Source: an uncultured Gammaproteobacteria bacterium (GTDB taxonomy: Bacteria; Pseudomonadota; Gammaproteobacteria; Eutrophobiales; Eutrophobiaceae). Taken from it: a stretch of DNA of 64,000 nucleotides. Location of the stretch: the NCBI GenBank assembly GCA_943788815.1, contig CALSRS010000003.1:161193-225192 (forward strand). Direction: 5' to 3'. Made by a program: the position numbers and the translations under genes. Positions 2,478 to 32,213 of the stretch are shown piece by piece; the first letter of the stretch is position 1; the number at the start of each line of letters is the position of its first letter. Below the pieces are notes generated by a model. The model was given only the letters and a program-made list of their open reading frames with translations. It was not told where the DNA came from and ran no database searches.

Positions 2478-4046
2478 TTACCTTAAAGTAGTATTGATAA
2501 TTTTTTCAAGAAGAAAGATTTCTATATTGTTATTGCGGTCTTTAAAGTAAGCAACTTCATGGTAGTCATCATTTGATACTCTTTGCATGGGATAAAATTC
2601 AGGATATTTCCCCGCCGCATCATATACAGGCATAGCCAGTATGTAATTGCAGGCACTAGACCCATTAGTAAATTCTTCATCAGAGACTTCAGGACGAGGT
2701 AATACACTGGAAACTCTTTTGGCATGTAACATAATAATAGGCGCTTGTATCGAGTAAATACATTCATTCTCAGGAACAAAGTTTTGTATTTCTTTTATCG
2801 ATTTGACTATAAAGTATGAATTATTAATCAGTATCTCTGCATTTTCTATATTATTCGCCATTAACCAATTACGGTCGCGGCGATAAGGCATTAACTCTGT
2901 ATCAACACTTGCATAAGCTCTGCTTATATATTGATAAGACGAAGGGGATAATACAGAAATGATTAGAACAATTATTAGAGAATTTCCAAATAATCGTAAA
3001 TTATAGGACTTGTGAAAATGAAAATATTCCATGATGAAATACAATAGACAAATAGGAATTATAGGGTAAAGAAATCTAGATACAAAAAAAATACTGTCGT
3101 ATGGCCAAATTAAAACTATCGCCATATATAAAATTAAAAATATTGCATCAAGTTCAAATTTTCTGATTCGTTTCAGTAATCTTGTAATTGTAAATGTAAG
3201 TATAATAAGTAGTAGAATATTTGTTAAAATTTGATGCAATAATCCAGTCTCAATTCCTGAAAATAGCCAATATATCGACTTGTAGAATATAAGGATTTTC
3301 TGAGTAATGAGATCCAATGCATCTGTTGGGGATAAATTGAATATAGTAGAAGTGAATATATCTATATAACTTGACCGGTCAGGATTGCTTTGCCTTATAA
3401 AATTCCAAAATAGAAAAGGAAGTAAGCAAGCTACTGAATATATTGCTGAATATTTATTTTTTTTCAGAAACATATGAATAATAAAAGCGAAAACAAATGC
3501 AATTCCGATAGATCTTGTAAGAGATGCAAGCGCTACTAAAAGTACTATGCCAATCCAATCCCTGCTATCACGATTCACTTTGCAACTAAGTAACAATGCT
3601 CCGTAGATAAAAATCATAAAGAGAAACTCACTCCACAATTCTTGGGAAAAAATTATGCTGCCAGGCAACATTAGCAGCAGTAAAAATGAGCCATAGGCAA
3701 AAAAATAATTACCAGTGTTTTTGTATATCCATAATGCAGAAATTAAAAAAGACATAACTTGCATTGTGACTGTAATATTTGTTGCCGTTGCAAGGTTATT
3801 GGAGTTGCCACCGAATAAACCAAGTATCATTGGGTATACTGGTGGGAAATAACTGTTTGTACGGAGTAAATCATATATGGCCTGAGCGCCGTTAGTACTG
3901 AATGTGTACATATCAGCGAGTAACAAATAAACAGCGTCATCAGAATTCGACCCAGCAAGCTGGTCATTGTATGTTATAGAAAAATAAAAAATATATCCTG
4001 AAACTACTAGTAGAATGAAAAAGTAATATTTTAAATTGACGAACAT
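2478..4046 (-). CDS. Polytopic membrane protein, GT-C-fold glycosyltransferase-like (ArnT/PMT-like), function unknown
   Basis: 522 aa. The N-terminal ~380 aa is extremely hydrophobic with more than 10 predicted TM helices. An acidic DD motif lies in the first extracytoplasmic loop (GSNSDDAVYLLLADMY), as in GT-C enzymes. The C-terminal ~140 aa is soluble. It lies adjacent to a DPM1-like GT2 and is AT-rich. Confidence 0.45.
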   Translation of the reverse strand: MFVNLKYYFFILLVVSGYIFYFSITYNDQLAGSNSDDAVYLLLADMYTFSTNGAQAIYDLLRTNSYFPPVYPMILGLFGGNSNNLATATNITVTMQVMSFLISALWIYKNTGNYFFAYGSFLLLLMLPGSIIFSQELWSEFLFMIFIYGALLLSCKVNRDSRDWIGIVLLVALASLTRSIGIAFVFAFIIHMFLKKNKYSAIYSVACLLPFLFWNFIRQSNPDRSSYIDIFTSTIFNLSPTDALDLITQKILIFYKSIYWLFSGIETGLLHQILTNILLLIILTFTITRLLKRIRKFELDAIFLILYMAIVLIWPYDSIFFVSRFLYPIIPICLLYFIMEYFHFHKSYNLRLFGNSLIIVLIISVLSPSSYQYISRAYASVDTELMPYRRDRNWLMANNIENAEILINNSYFIVKSIKEIQNFVPENECIYSIQAPIIMLHAKRVSSVLPRPEVSDEEFTNGSSACNYILAMPVYDAAGKYPEFYPMQRVSNDDYHEVAYFKDRNNNIEIFLLEKIINTTLR

Positions 4047-4113
4047 ATGATCAGAGAGTCATATTCTTTAATATTTTTGAAGCTGAACATTAATAAAACG
4101 TGAGGCTGTTAAT

Positions 4114-4815
4114 TTATATTCTGAGAAAACCATATTTTATTATGCAATAAATCGCACTTATCCCATCACGCCAGTTGATCTTCTTCCCCTCTGCATATGT
4201 TCTTCCAGCATATGATATACCAACTTCATATATTTTTATTTCAGGAATACGGGAGATTTTGATTGTCACTTCTGGCTCAAATCCAAATCGGTCTTCCGTT
4301 AATTCAATGCTCTTAATTATTTCTTTCTTAAATAATTTATAGCAGGTCTCCATATCTGTAAGATTTAAATCACTAAACATATTGCAAAATAAAGTTAAAA
4401 ATCTATTACCAATGGAGTGCCAGAAATATAGCACTCGGTGAGATTCTCCTCCCAAAAAGCGACTTCCGTAAACCACATCCGCATTATTCTTGATCACAGG
4501 TTCTATCATTAAGCAATATTCAGCTGGATCGTATTCAAGGTCAGCATCCTGAATAATTATATAATCACCTTCAGCTATACTTATACCTGTTCTAATCGCC
4601 GCCCCTTTTCCCTGGTTTGAATTATGTAATTCAAGCAAATCTATATATTTGTTTAGTTTTCCAGAAAGTAAATCGCGAGTGCCGTCAGTTGATCCATCAT
4701 CAACAACAATAACCTGTTTATTTTTCACTGGAGAAGAGTTGACCTTTTCCAGCAAGCGTTCTATGGTCGCTTCTTCGTTAAAACAAGGAATAATTATTGA
4801 AAGAGTGTATGACAT
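4114..4815 (-). CDS. GT2 family polyprenyl-phosphate sugar transferase (DPM1/ArnC-like catalytic domain, no C-terminal TM anchor)
   Basis: 233 aa: LSIIIPCFNEE...VVDDGSTDGT...QDADLEYDP (GT-A DXD region). ATG at 4813-4815. The stop codon lies 67 nt after the start codon of the GT-C gene on the same strand. Confidence 0.75.
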   Translation of the reverse strand: MSYTLSIIIPCFNEEATIERLLEKVNSSPVKNKQVIVVDDGSTDGTRDLLSGKLNKYIDLLELHNSNQGKGAAIRTGISIAEGDYIIIQDADLEYDPAEYCLMIEPVIKNNADVVYGSRFLGGESHRVLYFWHSIGNRFLTLFCNMFSDLNLTDMETCYKLFKKEIIKSIELTEDRFGFEPEVTIKISRIPEIKIYEVGISYAGRTYAEGKKINWRDGISAIYCIIKYGFLRI

Positions 4816-25492: not shown

Positions 25493-26821
25493 ATGTCAAA
25501 CCTCCAGAAAAATAATCAGTTCTCCACGGAAGATGTCCAGATAGAATCCCTGTCACATGAGGGCAGAGGTGTTGCAAGAATTAATGGAAAAACTGTTTTT
25601 GTGTCTGGTGCATTGCCTGGTGAATCCGTTGCAATTAATTATACTCGGCGGAAACCCAAGTTTGACGAAGCTGAGGTGCAGGAAATTAAACAGCCATCTC
25701 CAAACCGGGTCGAGGCTGCTTGTAATCATTTTGGTTTATGCGGAGGCTGCAGTCTCCAACATGTTGATAGTGATTACCAAATTGCACATAAGCAGGCAGT
25801 CGTGCTGGAGCAGCTATCTCATATTGGTAATGTACAGCCCCAGAAAATAATATCACCGATTACAGGAAATATTTGGGCTTACAGATTTAAAGCCAGATTG
25901 GGGGTAAAGTATGTTGCCAAAAAGAATAAAGTTCTTGTAGGTTTTCGGGAAAGAAAAAATCCCTCTTTTATTGCTGATATAGATGAATGTTTAGTCCTGG
26001 ACTCGTCAATAGGTAAACGGATTGCAGAGCTTAAATTATTAATCGATAGTTTAAGTATTCGGTCAAAAATTCCTCAATTGGAAGTTGCTATAGGTGAGAG
26101 TGAATCGGTAATCATCCTACGCCACCTGGAAAATTTATCCACTGAAGACATTGCCCTTCTTGATGCATATTCAATAGATTCAGGCATAGTCATTTTGTTA
26201 CAAGGTGGAAATATAAATTCAGTGACAACCTTGCATGGATCTAAGCCAAATTTTCTAGACTATAATTTGCCAATTGAGGATATCAGGATACAGTTTTCTC
26301 CAATGGATTTTACGCAGGTCAACCCTGAAATAAACCAAAAAATGGTTGAAAAAGTAGTTGAATTTTTGGAGTTGCATAACAGGGATACAGTATTGGATCT
26401 ATTTTGTGGATTAGGAAATTTTACATTGCCAATAGCTAGACATTCCCATTTTGTAACAGGTGTAGAAGGAGCACAGCGGCAGGTAGATGGTGCAATAAAA
26501 AATGCTGAAGTAAATGGAATTAGCAACGCTGAATTTAAATGTATTGATCTATATTCAGATAATATTGATTACGCACAGTTATCAGGTAAATATAATAAAT
26601 TATTACTTGATCCTCCAAGAAGTGGGGCAAAAGAAGTCATCAGTAGTCTAAATATGGACAAAATTCAAAAGCTGGTCTATGTTTCCTGTAATCCGGCCAC
26701 CCTGGCAAGAGATGCAGGAATACTTGTAAAAGAAAAAGGGTATATGTTTAAAATGCTTGGGGTAATTGATATGTTTCCACATACCAGCCATGTGGAGTCT
26801 GTTGCGGTTTTTGATAAATAG
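25493..26821 (+). CDS. rlmD: 23S rRNA (uracil1939-C5)-methyltransferase RlmD (RumA)
   Basis: TRAM domain plus 4Fe-4S Cys cluster (CNHFGLCGGCSLQH), an MTase fold (LDLFCGLGNFTLP), and the catalytic VYVSCNPATLARD. Confidence 0.9.
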   Translation: MSNLQKNNQFSTEDVQIESLSHEGRGVARINGKTVFVSGALPGESVAINYTRRKPKFDEAEVQEIKQPSPNRVEAACNHFGLCGGCSLQHVDSDYQIAHKQAVVLEQLSHIGNVQPQKIISPITGNIWAYRFKARLGVKYVAKKNKVLVGFRERKNPSFIADIDECLVLDSSIGKRIAELKLLIDSLSIRSKIPQLEVAIGESESVIILRHLENLSTEDIALLDAYSIDSGIVILLQGGNINSVTTLHGSKPNFLDYNLPIEDIRIQFSPMDFTQVNPEINQKMVEKVVEFLELHNRDTVLDLFCGLGNFTLPIARHSHFVTGVEGAQRQVDGAIKNAEVNGISNAEFKCIDLYSDNIDYAQLSGKYNKLLLDPPRSGAKEVISSLNMDKIQKLVYVSCNPATLARDAGILVKEKGYMFKMLGVIDMFPHTSHVESVAVFDK

Positions 26822-26831
26822 AATAATTATT

Positions 26832-27326
26832 ATGGATATCACAAGTGCAAAATATATAGAAATTTCTCTATCTAAGCAGGTTCTAATATTACAACAAGGT
26901 AGAGCAATACTATTTAAATCAAAAATTTCTTCAGCATTAAACGGCGCAGGAGAATTGTCCGGCAGTTTGTGCACACCAAGGGGATTGCATTTTATCAGCG
27001 ATAAAATTGGCAGTAATTGTCAAGAAGGTACCGTATTTGAAGCCAGGAAACCTACCGGTGAAATATATTCCGATGACCTTGCTCTTAAATACCCTGATCG
27101 GGACTGGGTACTAACACGAATTCTAAGGTTATCTGGGAAGGAGGTCGGTCGAAATAAAGGAAGTAATGTGGATTCATTTGATCGGTATATATACATACAT
27201 GGAACACCTGAAGAATCTGCTATCGGAAATCCAGTGTCCCATGGATGTATACGGATGAAAAATCCGGATATTATGGAATTATTTGAAATGGTTAATGTTA
27301 ATACTGAGGTCCTTATTAACGAATAA
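26832..27326 (+). CDS. L,D-transpeptidase (YkuD/ErfK family)
   Basis: The catalytic HGCIRM motif is present. The ORF-track start at 26766 overlaps rlmD. The ATG at 26832, 11 nt after the rlmD stop, is preferred. Confidence 0.8.
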   Translation: MDITSAKYIEISLSKQVLILQQGRAILFKSKISSALNGAGELSGSLCTPRGLHFISDKIGSNCQEGTVFEARKPTGEIYSDDLALKYPDRDWVLTRILRLSGKEVGRNKGSNVDSFDRYIYIHGTPEESAIGNPVSHGCIRMKNPDIMELFEMVNVNTEVLINE

Positions 27327-27413
27327 TCGTAATTGCGTTCGCTGTAAACCTCTACCCGCTTGGGACGTTAATATTAGTGAACGAAAATAATTAACATAGT
27401 CAGGAGATTTGTA

Positions 27414-27995
27414 ATGATAAAATTTTTAATTCACAGACTTTTACTCACAACAGGGATTATCCTTTCAGTATTGCCGGTTTATTCCATTGCACAGATTGAA
27501 TCACCTCAAGGGATTGAGGATCGAGGTCCAATCCATGCAGAGCAGCGAGAAGCAAGAAGGGCAGAATTTCTTGCCAATAATCCTGAAATTGAAGAGCGTA
27601 TGCAGCAACGTAGAGCACAAATGGAATCCCGGCGTGTAGCATTCGAAGAAAAATATCCAGAAGCAGCTGCAGAAATGCAAAGCTGGGTAGAAGCAGATAG
27701 TGAAAGCCGGCAGTTAATGCGTGAGCAAAAAGAAGTTGCTAGAGCAGAATTTGAACGTAAGTATCCACAAGCCTTTGCTGAAATGAAGGCATTGCGAGAG
27801 CAAGGCAGACAAGAGAGAGAAGCGAGGCGGGCAGAAATGGACGCGCGTCGTGGCGAGTTCGAAGCAAAGTATCCAGAAGCTGCGGCTGAACTACATTCGA
27901 TGCAAGAAGGCTTGGGTCGCCGTGGTGGTGAATTTCGTCGAGGAGAAGGAAAAGGATTTGGACCAAGGTTTGATCGGAATCAACCTGACATTTAG
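27414..27995 (+). CDS. Secreted Arg/Glu-rich tandem-repeat protein (four ~25-aa repeats, R-A-E-F-x-x-K-Y-P-E-A-A-A-E-M), Gly/Arg-rich C-terminus
   Basis: AGGAG SD sequence and a signal peptide (MIKFLIHRLLLTTGIILSVLPVYSIAQ). The internal repeats are visible at DNA level (AAATATCCAGAAGCAGCTGCAGAAATG and AAGTATCCAGAAGCTGCGGCTGAA). Confidence 0.6.
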   Translation: MIKFLIHRLLLTTGIILSVLPVYSIAQIESPQGIEDRGPIHAEQREARRAEFLANNPEIEERMQQRRAQMESRRVAFEEKYPEAAAEMQSWVEADSESRQLMREQKEVARAEFERKYPQAFAEMKALREQGRQEREARRAEMDARRGEFEAKYPEAAAELHSMQEGLGRRGGEFRRGEGKGFGPRFDRNQPDI

Positions 27996-28004
27996 ATAAA
28001 TCTA

Positions 28005-28035
28005 TCTCCTGTAAGCGGGAGAAACGGTCATATTT
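28005..28035 (+). terminator. Possible intrinsic terminator after the repeat-protein gene
   Basis: Hairpin TCTCCTG-taag-CGGGAGA, a 7-bp stem with one G-U pair, followed by a weak T-rich tail (AACGGTCATATTT). Confidence 0.3.
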
Positions 28036-28348
28036 ACCGCTCCTCCTTAATATTTATTTTACAGCTCTTGATGAAATAGTAGTAAAAACAACTGCTTAGT
28101 ATAAAAATACTTTTTCAGGTCGAATGTATCATGTCAACCTTGATTCAAGTTTATGCGTTGTGCTTAGTATGGTCAGCGCTTTTTTGCAGATTAATATGCT
28201 CCCAGGAGTACCTATGGAAGCCATGTTTATAACTATATCTGAATGTATTTTTTGTTAGTAACAGCACGGGCAGAAGATTACGTGACGATACTAATATATT
28301 CCGTTTGTTATTGTAGTCGCCATACCATTAATCAAGAGGGGAGTTATT

Positions 28349-28888
28349 CTGGGAAACCAAAAGGAACTGGATCGGTTTCTGGCAGAGGTAGAACGTCGGG
28401 CATACCGAATGGCTGAGATTGCGACAGGTAATGGTGATGATGCATTAGATATTTTACAGGATGCAATGTACAAGTTGGTACAAAAGTATTCCCACAAGCC
28501 TGCTGAGGAATGGGGACCATTATTCCATACGATACTTCAGAGTCGGATTATGGACTACCATCGTCGGAATACAGTACGAAATAAGTATATGGTTTGGTTT
28601 GGAAGCAAAGATGGGGACAAAGAGATCGATCCTATACAGACGGCAGTGGATGAGCATACCCTCGGGCCTGCTGCCAGTGTAGATCAGGGAATGAGCATGC
28701 AGGTCCTGGATAAAGCGATACGCGAACTTCCTGCGCGCCAACAACAGGCGTTTATGTTGAGGGCACTGGAGGGTCTGAATGTAGCTGAAACGGCGAAGAT
28801 TATGAAATGCTCACAAGGAAGTGTTAAAACACATTATTTCCGGGCGGTATCTGTATTACGAGAAAAATTAGGTGATTACAGGATATGA
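28349..28888 (+). CDS. ECF (group IV) sigma-70 family RNA polymerase sigma factor
   Basis: Region 2 (DDALDILQDAMYKLVQKY) and region 4 HTH (LRALEGLNVAETAKIMKCSQGSVKTHYFRAVSVLREKL) are present. The frame is open upstream of the first ATG (28409) back to 28295. The strong SD sequence AAGAGGGGAG (28335-28343) is followed by CTG at 28349. The ATG-only version would lack ~20 N-terminal residues. Confidence 0.7.
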   Translation: MGNQKELDRFLAEVERRAYRMAEIATGNGDDALDILQDAMYKLVQKYSHKPAEEWGPLFHTILQSRIMDYHRRNTVRNKYMVWFGSKDGDKEIDPIQTAVDEHTLGPAASVDQGMSMQVLDKAIRELPARQQQAFMLRALEGLNVAETAKIMKCSQGSVKTHYFRAVSVLREKLGDYRI

Positions 28889-29220
28889 GTAACGACAAAA
28901 CATTAGACATAGAAACAAAAATTAGAGAACGATTTAATGAAAGCGTATCAGCGTTGGACGGATCAACTTTATCCAGAATTGCGTCTGTAAGAAATCGAGT
29001 ATTGGATGTCTCGTCAGAACCGGTAAGAAATAGGTTTTTATGGATTCCTGTTGGTGCAGTAGCAACATTTTGTGCTGCTATAGTGCTTTATAGTCTAGTG
29101 CCGCAGGAAAATATGGAAAATAAAACATTCATAGATGAGGTTGATATAATCTCTGAACTGGATTTATATGAGAACCTGGAATTCTATGATTGGCTTGAAC
29201 AACATGAGTTACCTTCCTAG
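28885..29220 (+). CDS. Small single-TM membrane protein, putative anti-sigma factor (DUF3619-like by recollection)
   Basis: ATGA overlaps the sigma stop. 111 aa with a central TM (FLWIPVGAVATFCAAIVLYSLV) and an acidic C-terminus. Confidence 0.5.
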   Translation: MSNDKTLDIETKIRERFNESVSALDGSTLSRIASVRNRVLDVSSEPVRNRFLWIPVGAVATFCAAIVLYSLVPQENMENKTFIDEVDIISELDLYENLEFYDWLEQHELPS

Positions 29221-29437
29221 GTTATTATTCTTAGTGATAAGTATTGTTTCAACAATGAGTTTTGCAGGTTCAAGCAAACACGATGAAGTGGAAATTTCAA
29301 TGGAATTTCTTGAATTTCTTTCTGAGTGTGAGACAGATCAGGGAGAATGGAGCGGCCCGGATGGATTTATTGATGATTCTTTTGATCAGTTTTTTATAAT
29401 AGAGCAAGAAAATTTTGAAAATGAAACTGATAAATAA
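29204..29437 (+). CDS. Small acidic secreted protein (hypothetical)
   Basis: Signal peptide (MSYLPRLLFLVISIVSTMSFAGS) then highly acidic (...DDSFDQFFIIEQENFENETDK). It overlaps the anti-sigma 3' end and the DUF3106 5' end. Its coding status is uncertain. Confidence 0.3.
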   Translation: MSYLPRLLFLVISIVSTMSFAGSSKHDEVEISMEFLEFLSECETDQGEWSGPDGFIDDSFDQFFIIEQENFENETDK

Positions 29438-30125
29438 AATATTAATATACAGATTATTGTTTTTGTATGTTATCGCATTTTCGGTAAATGCTCAGGACAT
29501 ATTACCTTGGGAAGAACTTTCTTCTGAACAGCAACAAGTATTAAAACCATTTGAAGAAAAATGGGAAGAAGTGCCTGGAAACAGGAGACGGGCAATGCAA
29601 CGTGGAGCTGAACGATGGAGTAAGATGTCACCAGAGCAACGCCAGAACTCAAGAAACCAGTTCAGACGGTGGAATTCGTTTGATCAGGATAAGAAACAGG
29701 TTGTCAGAAGACGCTTTAATCAGTTCAATAATATTAGCATCGCTGAACGAGAACAATTGAAGCGAAGACAAGAATGGTTCAGAGATTTATCCCCTGAGAT
29801 CCAGACTGCATTAAGGCGAAGGTGGGAGACTATGTCGCCTGAGGAAAGAACCGCCATGCGGCAAAATCGACCTGAGATCAACCAGCAACAACGAGATTTG
29901 GTCCGCGAATACGTACTGAGTTTGAATCCAGACGAACGGTCAAACCTGGAATCCGAGTGGAGATTGATGACTCCTGAAGAAAAAGTTGATTTTATCGAAC
30001 AAACAACAAGACAAAGACCCGATTTCAGATCTCCTCCAAATAATCGTCAACGCGATCAGATTATCCCTAGAATTCAGGACCGAATTAATGACGAGATGCG
30101 GTCAAGAAGACAAGCTCCACGTTAA
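29421..30125 (+). CDS. DUF3106-like secreted repeat protein (W-x-x-M/L-S/T-P-E-E-R repeats)
   Basis: Signal peptide (MKLINKILIYRLLFLYVIAFSVNAQ), then RWSKMSPEQR, FRDLSPEIQ, RWETMSPEER, LSLNPDER, WRLMTPEEK. The ORF-track start is TTG at 29415. The ATG at 29421 is preferred. Confidence 0.7.
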   Translation: MKLINKILIYRLLFLYVIAFSVNAQDILPWEELSSEQQQVLKPFEEKWEEVPGNRRRAMQRGAERWSKMSPEQRQNSRNQFRRWNSFDQDKKQVVRRRFNQFNNISIAEREQLKRRQEWFRDLSPEIQTALRRRWETMSPEERTAMRQNRPEINQQQRDLVREYVLSLNPDERSNLESEWRLMTPEEKVDFIEQTTRQRPDFRSPPNNRQRDQIIPRIQDRINDEMRSRRQAPR

Positions 30126-30244: not shown

Positions 30245-31309
30245 ATGACTACTGGTCCAATAATGCTGGATATTGAGGGAACTGAGTTAACGCCAGAAGA
30301 TATCGAACTTCTAAAGCACCCAGATACCGGTGGTGTAATTTTGTTCTCAAGAAATTTTGCTGACATTGAGCAGCTCTCATTTCTTACGTCTCAAATTAAA
30401 AAACTAAACAAAACTGAATTAATAATTGGTGTTGATCATGAAGGTGGACGTATACAAAGATTTAAAGATGAATTTACCAGGCTTCCGCCAAGTCGATTGC
30501 TGGGTGAACTATATGAAAAAGATAGACGAAAGGCAGCTCAGTTAGCTGAATCTACTGGATGGTTAATGGCAGCTGAACTTTTGGCAGTTGGTGTTGATTT
30601 TAGTTTTGCCCCGGTGCTTGATTTAGACAGGGGTAACAGTCAGGTTATTGGTGACAGGGCATTTCACCACTCTGCTGACATCGTTGCTGAGCTGGCGAAG
30701 CACTTAATTAAAGGGATGCGTAAAGCGGGCATGGAAGGAGTGGGTAAACATTTTCCCGGTCACGGATGGGTTAAGGAAGATTCTCATGTGGCTGTTCCAA
30801 GAGATCCGCGTCAATATGAAGATATGATGTTATCAGATTTGATCCCATTTGAACGTCTAATAAATGCCGGTATTTCTGCAATTATGCCTGCTCATGTGAT
30901 CTATGAAAAAATTGATAAATATCCTGCAGGATTTTCTAAGATCTGGTTAACAGAATTGTTACGAAATCAAATGGGATTTCATGGAATGATATTTAGTGAT
31001 GATATTACGATGGCAGGTGCCGAAGTACTGGGTTCACCTATGGATAGAACCAGTGCAGCATTAGAAGCAGGATGTGACATGGTGTTGATATGTAATAACC
31101 GACAAGCGGTATACGAGGTACTAGATAATGTTAAGTTTGGACCTATGCCTGCATCTCGAGTGAGATTAATGAGGATGTACGGTAAAACGTCAAATATAAA
31201 TATGCTTGAATTGAAAAGAACAGAAAATTGGAAAAGTATTTCAAATCAGGTCTCTTTTCTGGATAAGGAACCTGAACTGGATCTGGGTGACGATGAATAT
31301 CATGCGTAA
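30245..31309 (+). CDS. nagZ: Beta-N-acetylhexosaminidase NagZ (GH3)
   Basis: IMLDIEGTELTPEDIELLKHP...GGVILFSRN; KHFPGHG; 354 aa. Confidence 0.9.
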   Translation: MTTGPIMLDIEGTELTPEDIELLKHPDTGGVILFSRNFADIEQLSFLTSQIKKLNKTELIIGVDHEGGRIQRFKDEFTRLPPSRLLGELYEKDRRKAAQLAESTGWLMAAELLAVGVDFSFAPVLDLDRGNSQVIGDRAFHHSADIVAELAKHLIKGMRKAGMEGVGKHFPGHGWVKEDSHVAVPRDPRQYEDMMLSDLIPFERLINAGISAIMPAHVIYEKIDKYPAGFSKIWLTELLRNQMGFHGMIFSDDITMAGAEVLGSPMDRTSAALEAGCDMVLICNNRQAVYEVLDNVKFGPMPASRVRLMRMYGKTSNINMLELKRTENWKSISNQVSFLDKEPELDLGDDEYHA

Positions 31310-32213
31310 TAACATTATAGCATTTTTATTAATTCTGTTTTTGCATATTCCTCTGGCTTATGGTGAATTTTTGTGTCGGCCATATGAAGTAGTAGAAAAT
31401 ACTAACTCAGGTTTAAATAAATTTAAGAATGGTCTGCTTTGGAAAATAAGTCATAATGAAAAAGTATTTGGATATCTATATGGAACTATCCATATAGGTG
31501 ACAGTGAAGTACTTAATCTACACGAGTCCGTAATACAAAGTTTAATGGCAAGTGATAATTTTTTAATGGAAGTAGTACCCCAACCTGAAGATGTATTAGA
31601 GATGTCTACGACCATGTTTTTTATGGATGGTAACAGGCTGGAAAACATCGTCAATCAGGAGATATTCAACAAAACAATAACTATATTGAGCAACTATGGG
31701 TTTACCAGGGAAATGGTTTCAGTAATGCAGCCATGGGCAGCGTATATTGTTATGAGCTATCCCAAAAATCCAGGTGAGATTCTCGATTTTAAGCTAATGG
31801 AGATAGCGCAAAGTAATGGTGCCCATGTATCTGGACTTGAATCTGCAATGGAGCAGGTGAAAATTTTTAGTGATCTTAGTTTGGATGATCAGGCAAGAAT
31901 TTTGACCGATGCAGTATGCCATTACGAGAATACCACCGAAGATTTTAATGAAGTGAAAAATCATTATTTAAACAGGGATCTTGATAGTCTGTATTCATTT
32001 AGTGAAAAATATACCTTTGGTGACGATTCTGTTTACGAGCGTATTGCAATGGAATTAATAACTTATCGTAATGGTAAGATGGTAGATGGAATTTTGGAGT
32101 ATTTGAGTAGTGGAATTACATTTATTGCAGTTGGTGCAATGCATCTCCCCGGAGAAGATGGGATATTAAATCAATTGGAACTACGAGCATATAATATTGA
32201 GAAGATTTACTAA
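31302..32213 (+). CDS. TraB/GumN family protein
   Basis: GYLYGTIHIGD...AVGAMHLPGEDGILNQL. A GTG at 31287 is the ORF-track start. The ATG at 31302 gives a signal-like N-terminus and overlaps the nagZ end. Confidence 0.65.
   Translation: MRNNIIAFLLILFLHIPLAYGEFLCRPYEVVENTNSGLNKFKNGLLWKISHNEKVFGYLYGTIHIGDSEVLNLHESVIQSLMASDNFLMEVVPQPEDVLEMSTTMFFMDGNRLENIVNQEIFNKTITILSNYGFTREMVSVMQPWAAYIVMSYPKNPGEILDFKLMEIAQSNGAHVSGLESAMEQVKIFSDLSLDDQARILTDAVCHYENTTEDFNEVKNHYLNRDLDSLYSFSEKYTFGDDSVYERIAMELITYRNGKMVDGILEYLSSGITFIAVGAMHLPGEDGILNQLELRAYNIEKIY

Follow-up and report, generated by a model that had tools for sequence, protein, structure and literature searches.

The sigAb-aabA-aabB operon of Acinetobacter baumannii was studied by Bacon et al. 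(mBio 2025, PMC12153292). The SigAb promoter was defined by 5' rapid amplification of cDNA ends (5' RACE) and saturation mutagenesis, and consists of the -35 element GTCAAC, a 17-bp spacer (16 is tolerated; 16-18 nucleotides (nt)) and the -10 element CGTT. AabA and AabB both have anti-sigma activity. According to AlphaFold-multimer predictions, AabA binds the sigma factor like CnrY, and AabB is wrapped around the part of AabA that ends in the periplasm. The system is responsive to copper, its direct regulon in A. baumannii is formed by sigAb, relA and sabS, and SigAb was described as Acinetobacter-specific (PMC12153292). Here, we describe a related locus in a 64,000-nt (64-kb) stretch of contig CALSRS010000003.1 from an uncultured gammaproteobacterium (referred to as the window). 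It is probably a SigAb-type module for an extracytoplasmic function (ECF) sigma factor, which is organized as two transcription units with the same sigma-specific promoter. Comparative evidence supports three features that would make it a variant of this type: a conserved CTG start codon of the sigma gene, a fourth small periplasmic protein and a predicted sigma-dependent secreted repeat protein. The gene content, the homologies, both predicted promoters, the putative CTG start and the conservation across lineages come from sequence analysis. All coordinates are positions in the window, and all five genes are on the plus strand.

A sigma factor module related to SigAb

Region 27414-30125 contains five co-directional open reading frames (ORFs), which are called P1, sigma, P3, P4 and P5 (Table 1). 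This agrees with a first-pass annotation of the window, which had listed a secreted protein of 193 amino acids (aa) with four KYPEAAAEM-type repeats, an ECF sigma factor, a 111-aa protein with a single transmembrane segment and a start codon that overlaps the sigma stop (ATGA), an acidic secreted ORF of ~78 aa overlapping both neighbours, and a DUF3106-like secreted protein with five repeats. The window sigma scores 231.9 bits with NCBIfam NF006550 (PRK09047; cutoff 173) and covers model positions 10-191 of 194. A tblastn search of annotated records aligned 96% of this query with SigAb of A. baumannii, at 41.6% identity (E 2e-35). The order of the A. baumannii operon is sigma, a 106-aa hypothetical protein and a DUF3106 protein, with overlapping genes as in the window. 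P3 resembles AabA in position, overlap, topology and length (111 vs about 106-107 aa), though weakly in sequence (see below). P5 is a clear member of PF11304 (DUF3106), with 95.1 bits against a gathering threshold of 24.3 (E 4e-27; profile positions 1-103 of 104), and its family aligns to AabB with hhalign 97.6% and E 3e-12. The homology to SigAb thus supports the earlier reading of the locus as a signalling unit of an ECF sigma factor, a single-pass anti-sigma factor and a DUF3106 protein. The same annotation had considered this trio as recurring, which was borne out by a gene-neighbourhood comparison (see below), and as unstudied, which no longer applies because the A. baumannii homologue SigAb-AabA-AabB was characterized in 2025 (PMC12153292).

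The module is widespread. Homologues of sigma number 5,909 at E<=1e-10, and a pattern scan of species-representative genomes yielded at least 592 relatives. From these, 80 loci were fetched, and the module was recovered in all 80; it is not restricted to Acinetobacter. For a census of gene order, the window and 92 loci (93 in total) were analyzed by iterated hidden Markov model searches of six-frame ORFs. P3 was found in 90, P4 in 79 and P5 in 89 of the 93 loci, and the order is always sigma-P3-P4-P5. Given this recurrent order, the genes are not chance ORFs. Operons for sigma, DUF3619 and DUF3106 proteins with a GTCAAC-N17-CGTT promoter occur in many Gammaproteobacteria, in isolates of Geobacter and Trichlorobacter, and in metagenome-assembled genomes labelled as Nitrospira and other phyla. 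This distribution does not fit the description of SigAb as Acinetobacter-specific. A sister species of the window organism has the same five genes, its sigma being 94% identical. The host is represented by metagenome contigs only. Contigs from ENA and Logan, which reach 1 Mb in length, carry P1 genes identical to that of the window.

Predicted sigma-specific promoters and the leader of the sigma gene

The predicted autoregulatory promoter of the sigma operon is ~190 nt ahead of the sigma start. Its elements are identical to the mapped PsigAb elements of A. baumannii (PMC12153292). A second predicted promoter of this type ends 44 nt before the ATG of P1. The combined pattern GT[CA]AACC-N15/16-CGTT has exactly these two matches on both strands of the 64-kb window, where 0.04 are expected.

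An unbiased k-mer count, made independently of the SigAb paper, gave the same promoter; it covered the 300 nt ahead of each sigma gene in a non-redundant set of 82. GTCAACC occurs in 51 of these 82 regions (1.1 expected) and is followed by CGTT 15-16 nt later. In the 82 loci, the strict motif has 61 matches as sigma promoters and 19 other matches (see below). Before sigma, the motif (tGTCAACC-N15/16-CGTT) is usually at a distance of 130-260 nt from the sigma start. When a looser search with the seed GTCAAC was inspected, a sigma promoter was seen in ~70 of the 82 lineages. About eight other loci have the GTAAACC variant, as found before P1 in the window, in the promoter upstream of sigma. A generic scan for sigma-70 promoters and terminators stayed at chance level (eight sigma-70-like matches vs 8.1 expected).

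The transcript of the sigma operon would have a long leader (Table 1). An Rfam search with this leader gave no match. The leader contains an upstream ORF of 14 codons (MEAMFITISECIFC; 28215-28259) with a good ribosome-binding site (GGAG-N6-ATG). This ORF is conserved only in the sister species (L007) and not in L013. Just past the P1 stop codon (27996-28060), there is an imperfect hairpin (AGCGG-N18-CCGCT) with a T-rich stretch behind it. It was not called by the terminator scan, so that P1 transcripts may read through into the sigma operon.

Table 1. Features of the sigma factor module in the window and of corresponding loci in other lineages (numbers with the prefix L designate fetched loci and precede positions therein).
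Feature	Position	Strand	Remarks
Predicted SigAb-type promoter before P1	27344-27369	+	-35 GTAAAC, 16-nt spacer, -10 CGTT
P1, 193 aa, secreted charged helical repeat protein	27414-27995	+	signal-peptide-like N-terminus, four repeats, Gly/Arg-rich tail
Predicted autoregulatory SigAb-type promoter of the sigma operon	28133-28159	+	-35 GTCAAC, 17-nt spacer, -10 CGTT
5' leader of sigma, ~180 nt	28160-28348	+	length counted from a predicted transcription start
Sigma, SigAb-type ECF sigma factor, 179 aa	28349-28888	+	putative CTG start; NF006550 family; homology to SigAb
P3, 111 aa, single-pass anti-sigma candidate (DUF3619 family, AabA position)	28885-29220	+	transmembrane segment 54-72; ATG overlaps the sigma stop (ATGA)
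P4, 77 aa, secreted acidic protein, conserved fourth operon member	29204-29437	+	start ATG 29204 set by alignment of homologues
P5, 234 aa, periplasmic basic DUF3106 repeat protein, AabB homologue	29421-30125	+	PF11304; signal peptide; pI 10.5
Non-homologous secreted repeat proteins (45-60% charged) upstream of sigma	L014:262-1104, L016:4699-5280, L021:5388-5885, L022:5487-5912		each behind a sigma-type promoter
Non-homologous secreted repeat proteins (45-60% charged) upstream of sigma	L024:5428-5907, L056:1626-2126, L089:5484-5909		each behind a sigma-type promoter
Homologous operon of A. baumannii, CP040041.1 (L094)	3354-3382 and 3441-4744		GTCAAC-N17-CGTT promoter

The start codon of the sigma gene

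A mechanical ORF call places the sigma gene at 28409-28888 (159 aa), which is N-terminally truncated. Homology and the NF006550 model reach ~20 codons further upstream, to 28349, and the window has no in-frame ATG, GTG or TTG between the upstream stop codon and 28409. The first-pass annotation had recognized the ECF sigma factor correctly but missed the putative CTG start at 28349.

The start region was surveyed in DNA aligned across 82 non-redundant lineages, the aligned codon being read in loci L013-L092, L096 and L098 as well as in the window. The codon aligned to 28349-28351 is CTG in 76 of the 82 lineages and TTG in two; in the other four, a canonical start lies no more than two codons away. 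The stretch from the upstream stop to the CTG is devoid of canonical start codons in 26 CTG lineages. Of the 20 codon positions that were checked upstream of the CTG, 18 showed stop codons; downstream of it, none did. The pairwise amino acid identity is 0.06-0.15 at most positions upstream of the CTG (the exceptions are the Shine-Dalgarno block and the codon adjoining the CTG) and climbs to 0.8-1.0 at conserved positions after it. The codon just before the CTG is hypervariable (27 different codons). The next two conserved Leu positions use 6-7 different codons, mostly synonymous ones for Leu, and the 20 codons from the CTG to Met-21 as a whole are conserved at the protein level with synonymous variation. 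A purine block at -12 to -9 relative to the CTG (G in 41-69 of 76 sequences) is at the expected position for a Shine-Dalgarno sequence, and a 4-mer resembling this sequence is present 3-11 nt upstream of the CTG in 70 of the 76 CTG lineages. In the window, GGGGAG is found at 28338-28343, 5 nt ahead of the CTG. The combination of CTG and Shine-Dalgarno sequence also occurs in isolates (Geobacter sp. OR-1, Trichlorobacter thiogenes and Lentisalinibacter salinarum).

The alignment thus points to family-wide CUG initiation. The N-termini of this sigma family in the databases are ragged (155-234 aa), which is what gene callers restricted to ATG, GTG and TTG would produce. In the relatives from A. 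baumannii and Ralstonia, the sigma gene starts at ATG; the CTG is therefore a trait of the large clade which contains the window. CUG initiation is weak in Escherichia coli, and it would throttle the synthesis of the autoregulated sigma factor. If so, throttling of an autoregulated sigma factor at translation initiation would be a simple design principle. Among the papers listed by a literature search that combined CTG/CUG start codons with ECF sigma factors, none had a start-codon term.

Proteins encoded downstream of the sigma gene

(Putative anti-sigma factor P3.) The sigma stop and the P3 start share a 4-nt overlap (ATGA or GTGA) in 62 of 79 loci. P3 has ~50 cytoplasmic residues ahead of its transmembrane segment and an acidic periplasmic tail (isoelectric point (pI) 4.05) with a C-terminal LEFYDWL motif. 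In the P3 family, the tail ends in a conserved LE(L/M)YE(D/N)LEFYxWL helix, a heptad of the LEFYxWL type being present in 43 of 48 members. PF12279 (DUF3619) matches 33 of these 48 members (best E 3.4e-9). The P3 searches of NCBIfam and of PDB sequences gave no match.

(Small acidic protein P4.) P4 has a pI of 4.05 with 18 D/E vs 3 K/R, and its gene shares 17 nt with that of P3 and another 17 nt with that of P5. When aligned, the family members have in common a signal peptide, a conserved block P-D-x-(E/D)-F-L-E-(F/Y)-L-G-x-W-E-x-x-D-G-(E/D)-W-x-D-P and a D/E-rich tail. Where present, P4 is always encoded between P3 and P5. A phmmer search of 1.84 billion representative proteins yielded 25 relatives, mostly of 54-117 aa; none of 39 family members matches Pfam, and no relative was found in NCBIfam or the PDB. 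By these searches, P4 represents a conserved family that has no Pfam model or description. The first-pass annotation had taken the acidic ORF and the KYPEAAAEM protein to be additions to the trio. This holds, and the acidic ORF proved to be a conserved family in most relatives rather than a local oddity. P4 is missing from A. baumannii, Ralstonia and ~11 fetched operons which retain sigma, the anti-sigma factor and the DUF3106 protein; it is therefore an accessory part. As a hypothesis, P4 may be a partner or decoy of P5 or a cation-binding element. Homology of P4 to the C-terminus of P3 is not supported statistically (hhalign 2%; the strict heptad occurs in only 6 of 39 P4 members), which leaves a resemblance of motifs.

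(DUF3106 protein P5.) The five repeats attributed to P5 proved to be an approximate count: there are three strict W-x-x-(M/L)-(S/T)-P-E-(E/Q)-(R/K) repeats and three degenerate ones, with further W-units in the N-terminal part. Pfam identified P5 as a DUF3106 protein; window P1, P3 and P4 had no Pfam match. The AlphaFold2 (AF2) model of P5 is an array of short helices without a significant fold match. Its mean predicted local distance difference test (pLDDT) value is 68; the model is shallow because a word-indexed search with P5 gave one homologue. A P5 profile search of PDB sequences found nothing, and a literature search on DUF3106 and DUF3619 retrieved nothing relevant. Since the A. baumannii DUF3106 protein AabB has anti-sigma activity, P5 is, by analogy, best read as a co-anti-sigma factor, thus as a regulator and not as an effector. 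The acidic P3 tail and P4 are complementary in charge to the basic P5 (pI 4.05 and 4.05 against 10.5).

Secreted repeat proteins encoded upstream of the sigma gene

The four repeats of P1 (RRAEFExKYPEAAAEM-type; F-x2-3-(K/N)(Y/N)P(E/Q)-x-(E/A/R)(M/L)) are at residues 52, 77, 113 and 149, the first being degenerate. The mature part of the protein is 41% charged. No relative was found in Pfam, NCBIfam or PDB sequences, and P1 homologues form 11 clusters in 5.8 billion proteins, so that the family is clade-specific. The AF2 model, based on 11 sequences (pLDDT 75.7; above 90 for residues 60-160), has five long helices within residues 39-167, each (Y/N)PE being a break, and no fold match. When the P1 family was compared to the DUF3106 family, a weak likeness was detected (hhalign 37%, E 3.6e-4, 64 columns). 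P1 has no Pfam match, and at this hhalign probability its derivation from DUF3106 proteins is not favoured.

Because the sigma promoter motif occurs twice in the window, before sigma and before P1, P1 is a predicted direct target (local effector) of sigma. Each of the seven lineages for which DNA is available has the motif ahead of its P1 homologue, down to 42-48% protein identity (39-75 nt upstream in L007, L013, L017, L096, L097 and L098). The earlier notion that sigma is bracketed by two repeat-protein effectors thus describes the arrangement correctly and may apply to P1, while P5 would have to be counted among the regulators.

Other lineages have other proteins in this slot. Among the 19 strict motif matches that are not sigma promoters, 17 adjoin the operon. 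The gene behind them codes for a secreted repeat protein, usually a highly charged one, and the protein family varies by lineage. The promoter-linked proteins include P1-like proteins, EF-hand repeat proteins, proteins with an 11-residue repeat, and others. EF-hand proteins with DxDGDG repeats are encoded in L021 (EF-hand_1, E 8e-11), L014 and L016. The 11-residue repeat LDRKGDRIDxR, with sub-threshold matches to apolipoprotein-like models, is found in L022, L024, L031, L037, L038, L056, L064 and L089. These effector counts are limited to strict-motif cases, as a naive survey of the nearest upstream ORF was too noisy in GC-rich loci. Together with P4, the predicted sigma-dependent secreted repeat proteins provide testable handles on what the system senses and does, a question left by the Acinetobacter work.

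Two loci have an extra sigma-type promoter that is divergent from the operon (L027:336-668 and L041:2611-2925, both on the minus strand). It precedes a gene for a small secreted Gly/Ser-rich protein with a conserved segment (HNSVWGAG...DDNDTFLELVQQGGGADSVNRY) and without Pfam match.

In every case examined, the gene order around P1 is ykuD-P1-sigma. The module as a whole is embedded in a syntenic block rumA-ykuD...nagZ-TraB/GumN (25493-27326 and 30245-32213 in the window), which is common to L013, L014, L022, L024, L031 and L096-L098. The ykuD product resembles the L,D-carboxypeptidase ElsL (NF040925, 173 bits, below the cutoff). Thus, peptidoglycan-recycling genes are found on both sides of the module; no promoter motif ties them to sigma.

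Proposed mechanism and alternative explanations

Only for the Acinetobacter homologue has it been shown which promoter the sigma factor recognizes, that AabA and AabB act as anti-sigma factors, and that the system responds to copper (PMC12153292). For the window, we infer the signal, the contact between P3 and P5, and the roles of P4 and P1. The first transcription unit would encode sigma, P3, P4 and P5. P3, which would be translationally coupled to sigma through the ATGA overlap, may hold sigma at the membrane by its cytoplasmic domain of ~50 residues in a CnrY-like manner. The basic P5 would bind the acidic C-terminal helix of P3 in the periplasm and strengthen the inhibition. P4 is envisaged as an accessory periplasmic modulator that either binds the basic P5 or competes with the P3 tail for P5. 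The periplasmic complex would be disturbed by a signal at the envelope, perhaps by metal or cation stress as in the case of SigAb. The freed sigma would then transcribe its own operon and the second unit, which encodes P1. With a CUG start, little sigma would be made, and the positive feedback would be dampened.

It is tempting to extend this scheme to a large SigAb-like clade (Gammaproteobacteria, isolates of Geobacter and Trichlorobacter, Nitrospira-labelled metagenome-assembled genomes) with three undescribed traits: a universal CUG start that throttles the feedback; a P4 helix (EFLEFLG-WE) which mimics the LEFYxWL tail of P3 and is a decoy or partner for the DUF3106 co-anti-sigma factor in a periplasmic partner-switch; and an output of lineage-variable secreted proteins, which are polyampholytes, calcium-binding or built from 11-mer repeats. 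We offer this extension as a tentative speculation, which in its full form is rather more doubtful than the assignment of the locus itself. If true, the lineage-variable secreted outputs would suggest that the system reacts to cation stress or electrostatic stress in the periplasm.

Might the module be inactive, with a sigma gene that is decaying, truncated (159 aa from ATG 28409) or deprived of its start by an assembly error? The missing canonical start and the 159-aa call of the gene callers would fit, but the same sequence is found in many independent assemblies (22 contigs read), CTG and Shine-Dalgarno sequence are kept in 76 of 82 lineages including isolates, and the stretch from the CTG to Met-21 varies as expected for a protein under conservation. 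We consider an inactive sigma as extremely unlikely. It is also quite improbable, though less so, that P1 is an unrelated neighbour under a housekeeping sigma factor, with a coincidental motif match. P1 is separated from sigma by a gap of 353 nt and confined to one clade, its -35 element is one base off the SigAb core, and a weak sigma-70-like match (27391-27418, 9/12) lies over the P1 start. Such sigma-70-like matches occur at chance frequency, however, whereas the two SigAb-type matches are far beyond it. The motif has been retained before distant P1 homologues while the spacer sequence diverged, and in 16 other loci this slot, with the motif ahead of it, is taken by non-homologous secreted repeat proteins that are mostly highly charged.

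Two further explanations concern the periplasmic proteins, and we regard both as improbable. P4 may be the primary sensor, with a D/E-rich tail that binds metal or divalent cations; cation loading would then determine if P5 remains bound to the tail of the anti-sigma factor. This role would be compatible with the acidity and conservation of P4, with the copper response of SigAb, and with the calcium-binding EF-hand repeats of the predicted sigma-dependent neighbour in several lineages (L021, L014 and L016). The P4 alignment has no conserved His, Cys or Met metal ligands, however, and P4 is absent from operons that keep the rest of the module; it is therefore not a universal sensor. Alternatively, P5 and P1 may act in the periplasm as chaperones or stress effectors similar to CpxP/Spy and stand outside the signalling switch, their (M/L)(S/T)PE(E/Q)(R/K) repeats being analogous to LTxxQ. 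Fold searches gave no support for a CpxP/Spy-like DUF3106 protein, and no similarity of P5 or P1 to Spy or CpxP was detected.

Several points weigh against the assignment as a SigAb-type module with P1 as its output. The host is an uncultured gammaproteobacterium known from metagenome contigs, where sequence is the only evidence. The window P3 is below the PF12279 threshold (no match at E<=1), and its family shows weak similarity when aligned to AabA (hhalign 11.7%, E 0.0025). In front of P1, the -35 element is GTAAAC and not GTCAAC, the activity of this promoter being deduced from natural variants. CUG initiation is likewise deduced from comparative sequence and not from protein N-termini. 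The likeness between the P4 motif and the P3 tail lacks statistical support, and the structure models have no informative fold match. Finally, the direct SigAb regulon does not include a secreted repeat protein; conservation thus does not extend to the effector content, and copper may not be the signal here.

Comparison with known systems

The arrangement recalls RpoE-RseA-RseB of E. coli, which also has an autoregulated sigma factor, a membrane anti-sigma factor and a periplasmic protein that reinforces the latter. The window sigma, however, scores only 36 bits on TIGR02939 (cutoff 236), and the RpoE promoter (GGAACTT/TCAAA) is distinct from that found here (GTCAAC/CGTT). RseA is twice as large as P3, and searches with P3-P5 gave no match to RseA or RseB families.

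CnrH-CnrY-CnrX from Cupriavidus metallidurans, which combines a class II anti-sigma factor and a metal sensor in the periplasm, is similar in having an ECF sigma factor, a tiny single-pass anti-sigma factor whose cytoplasmic domain is short, and a partner in the periplasm that contacts the C-terminus of the anti-sigma factor. It differs in gene order. P3, P4 and P5 have no detectable sequence relation to CnrY or CnrX and no evident metal-binding site.

A conserved non-canonical start codon in a regulatory gene is known from infC (initiation factor IF3), where an AUU start is conserved across many species and limits the synthesis of the protein. The window gene has CUG and codes for an ECF sigma factor, so that the analogy is functional only. 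To our knowledge, a start codon other than ATG, GTG and TTG that is conserved through a whole regulator family is rare in bacteria, with few cases beyond infC.

The closest match is SigAb-AabA-AabB. Shared are the homologous sigma factor, identical promoter elements, autoregulation, a small overlapping gene for a single-pass protein, and the DUF3106 gene in last position. In the window, P4 is inserted between the two putative anti-sigma genes, and P3 can barely be aligned with AabA. The window sigma has a CTG behind a leader of ~180 nt, while sigAb has an ATG behind ~50-60 nt, as judged from the promoter position. The predicted local target in the window is a secreted repeat protein, in contrast to relA and the small RNA SabS as targets of SigAb. 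SigAb would thus be one branch of a widespread module which shares a promoter code, and the results from A. baumannii become testable and generalizable elsewhere.

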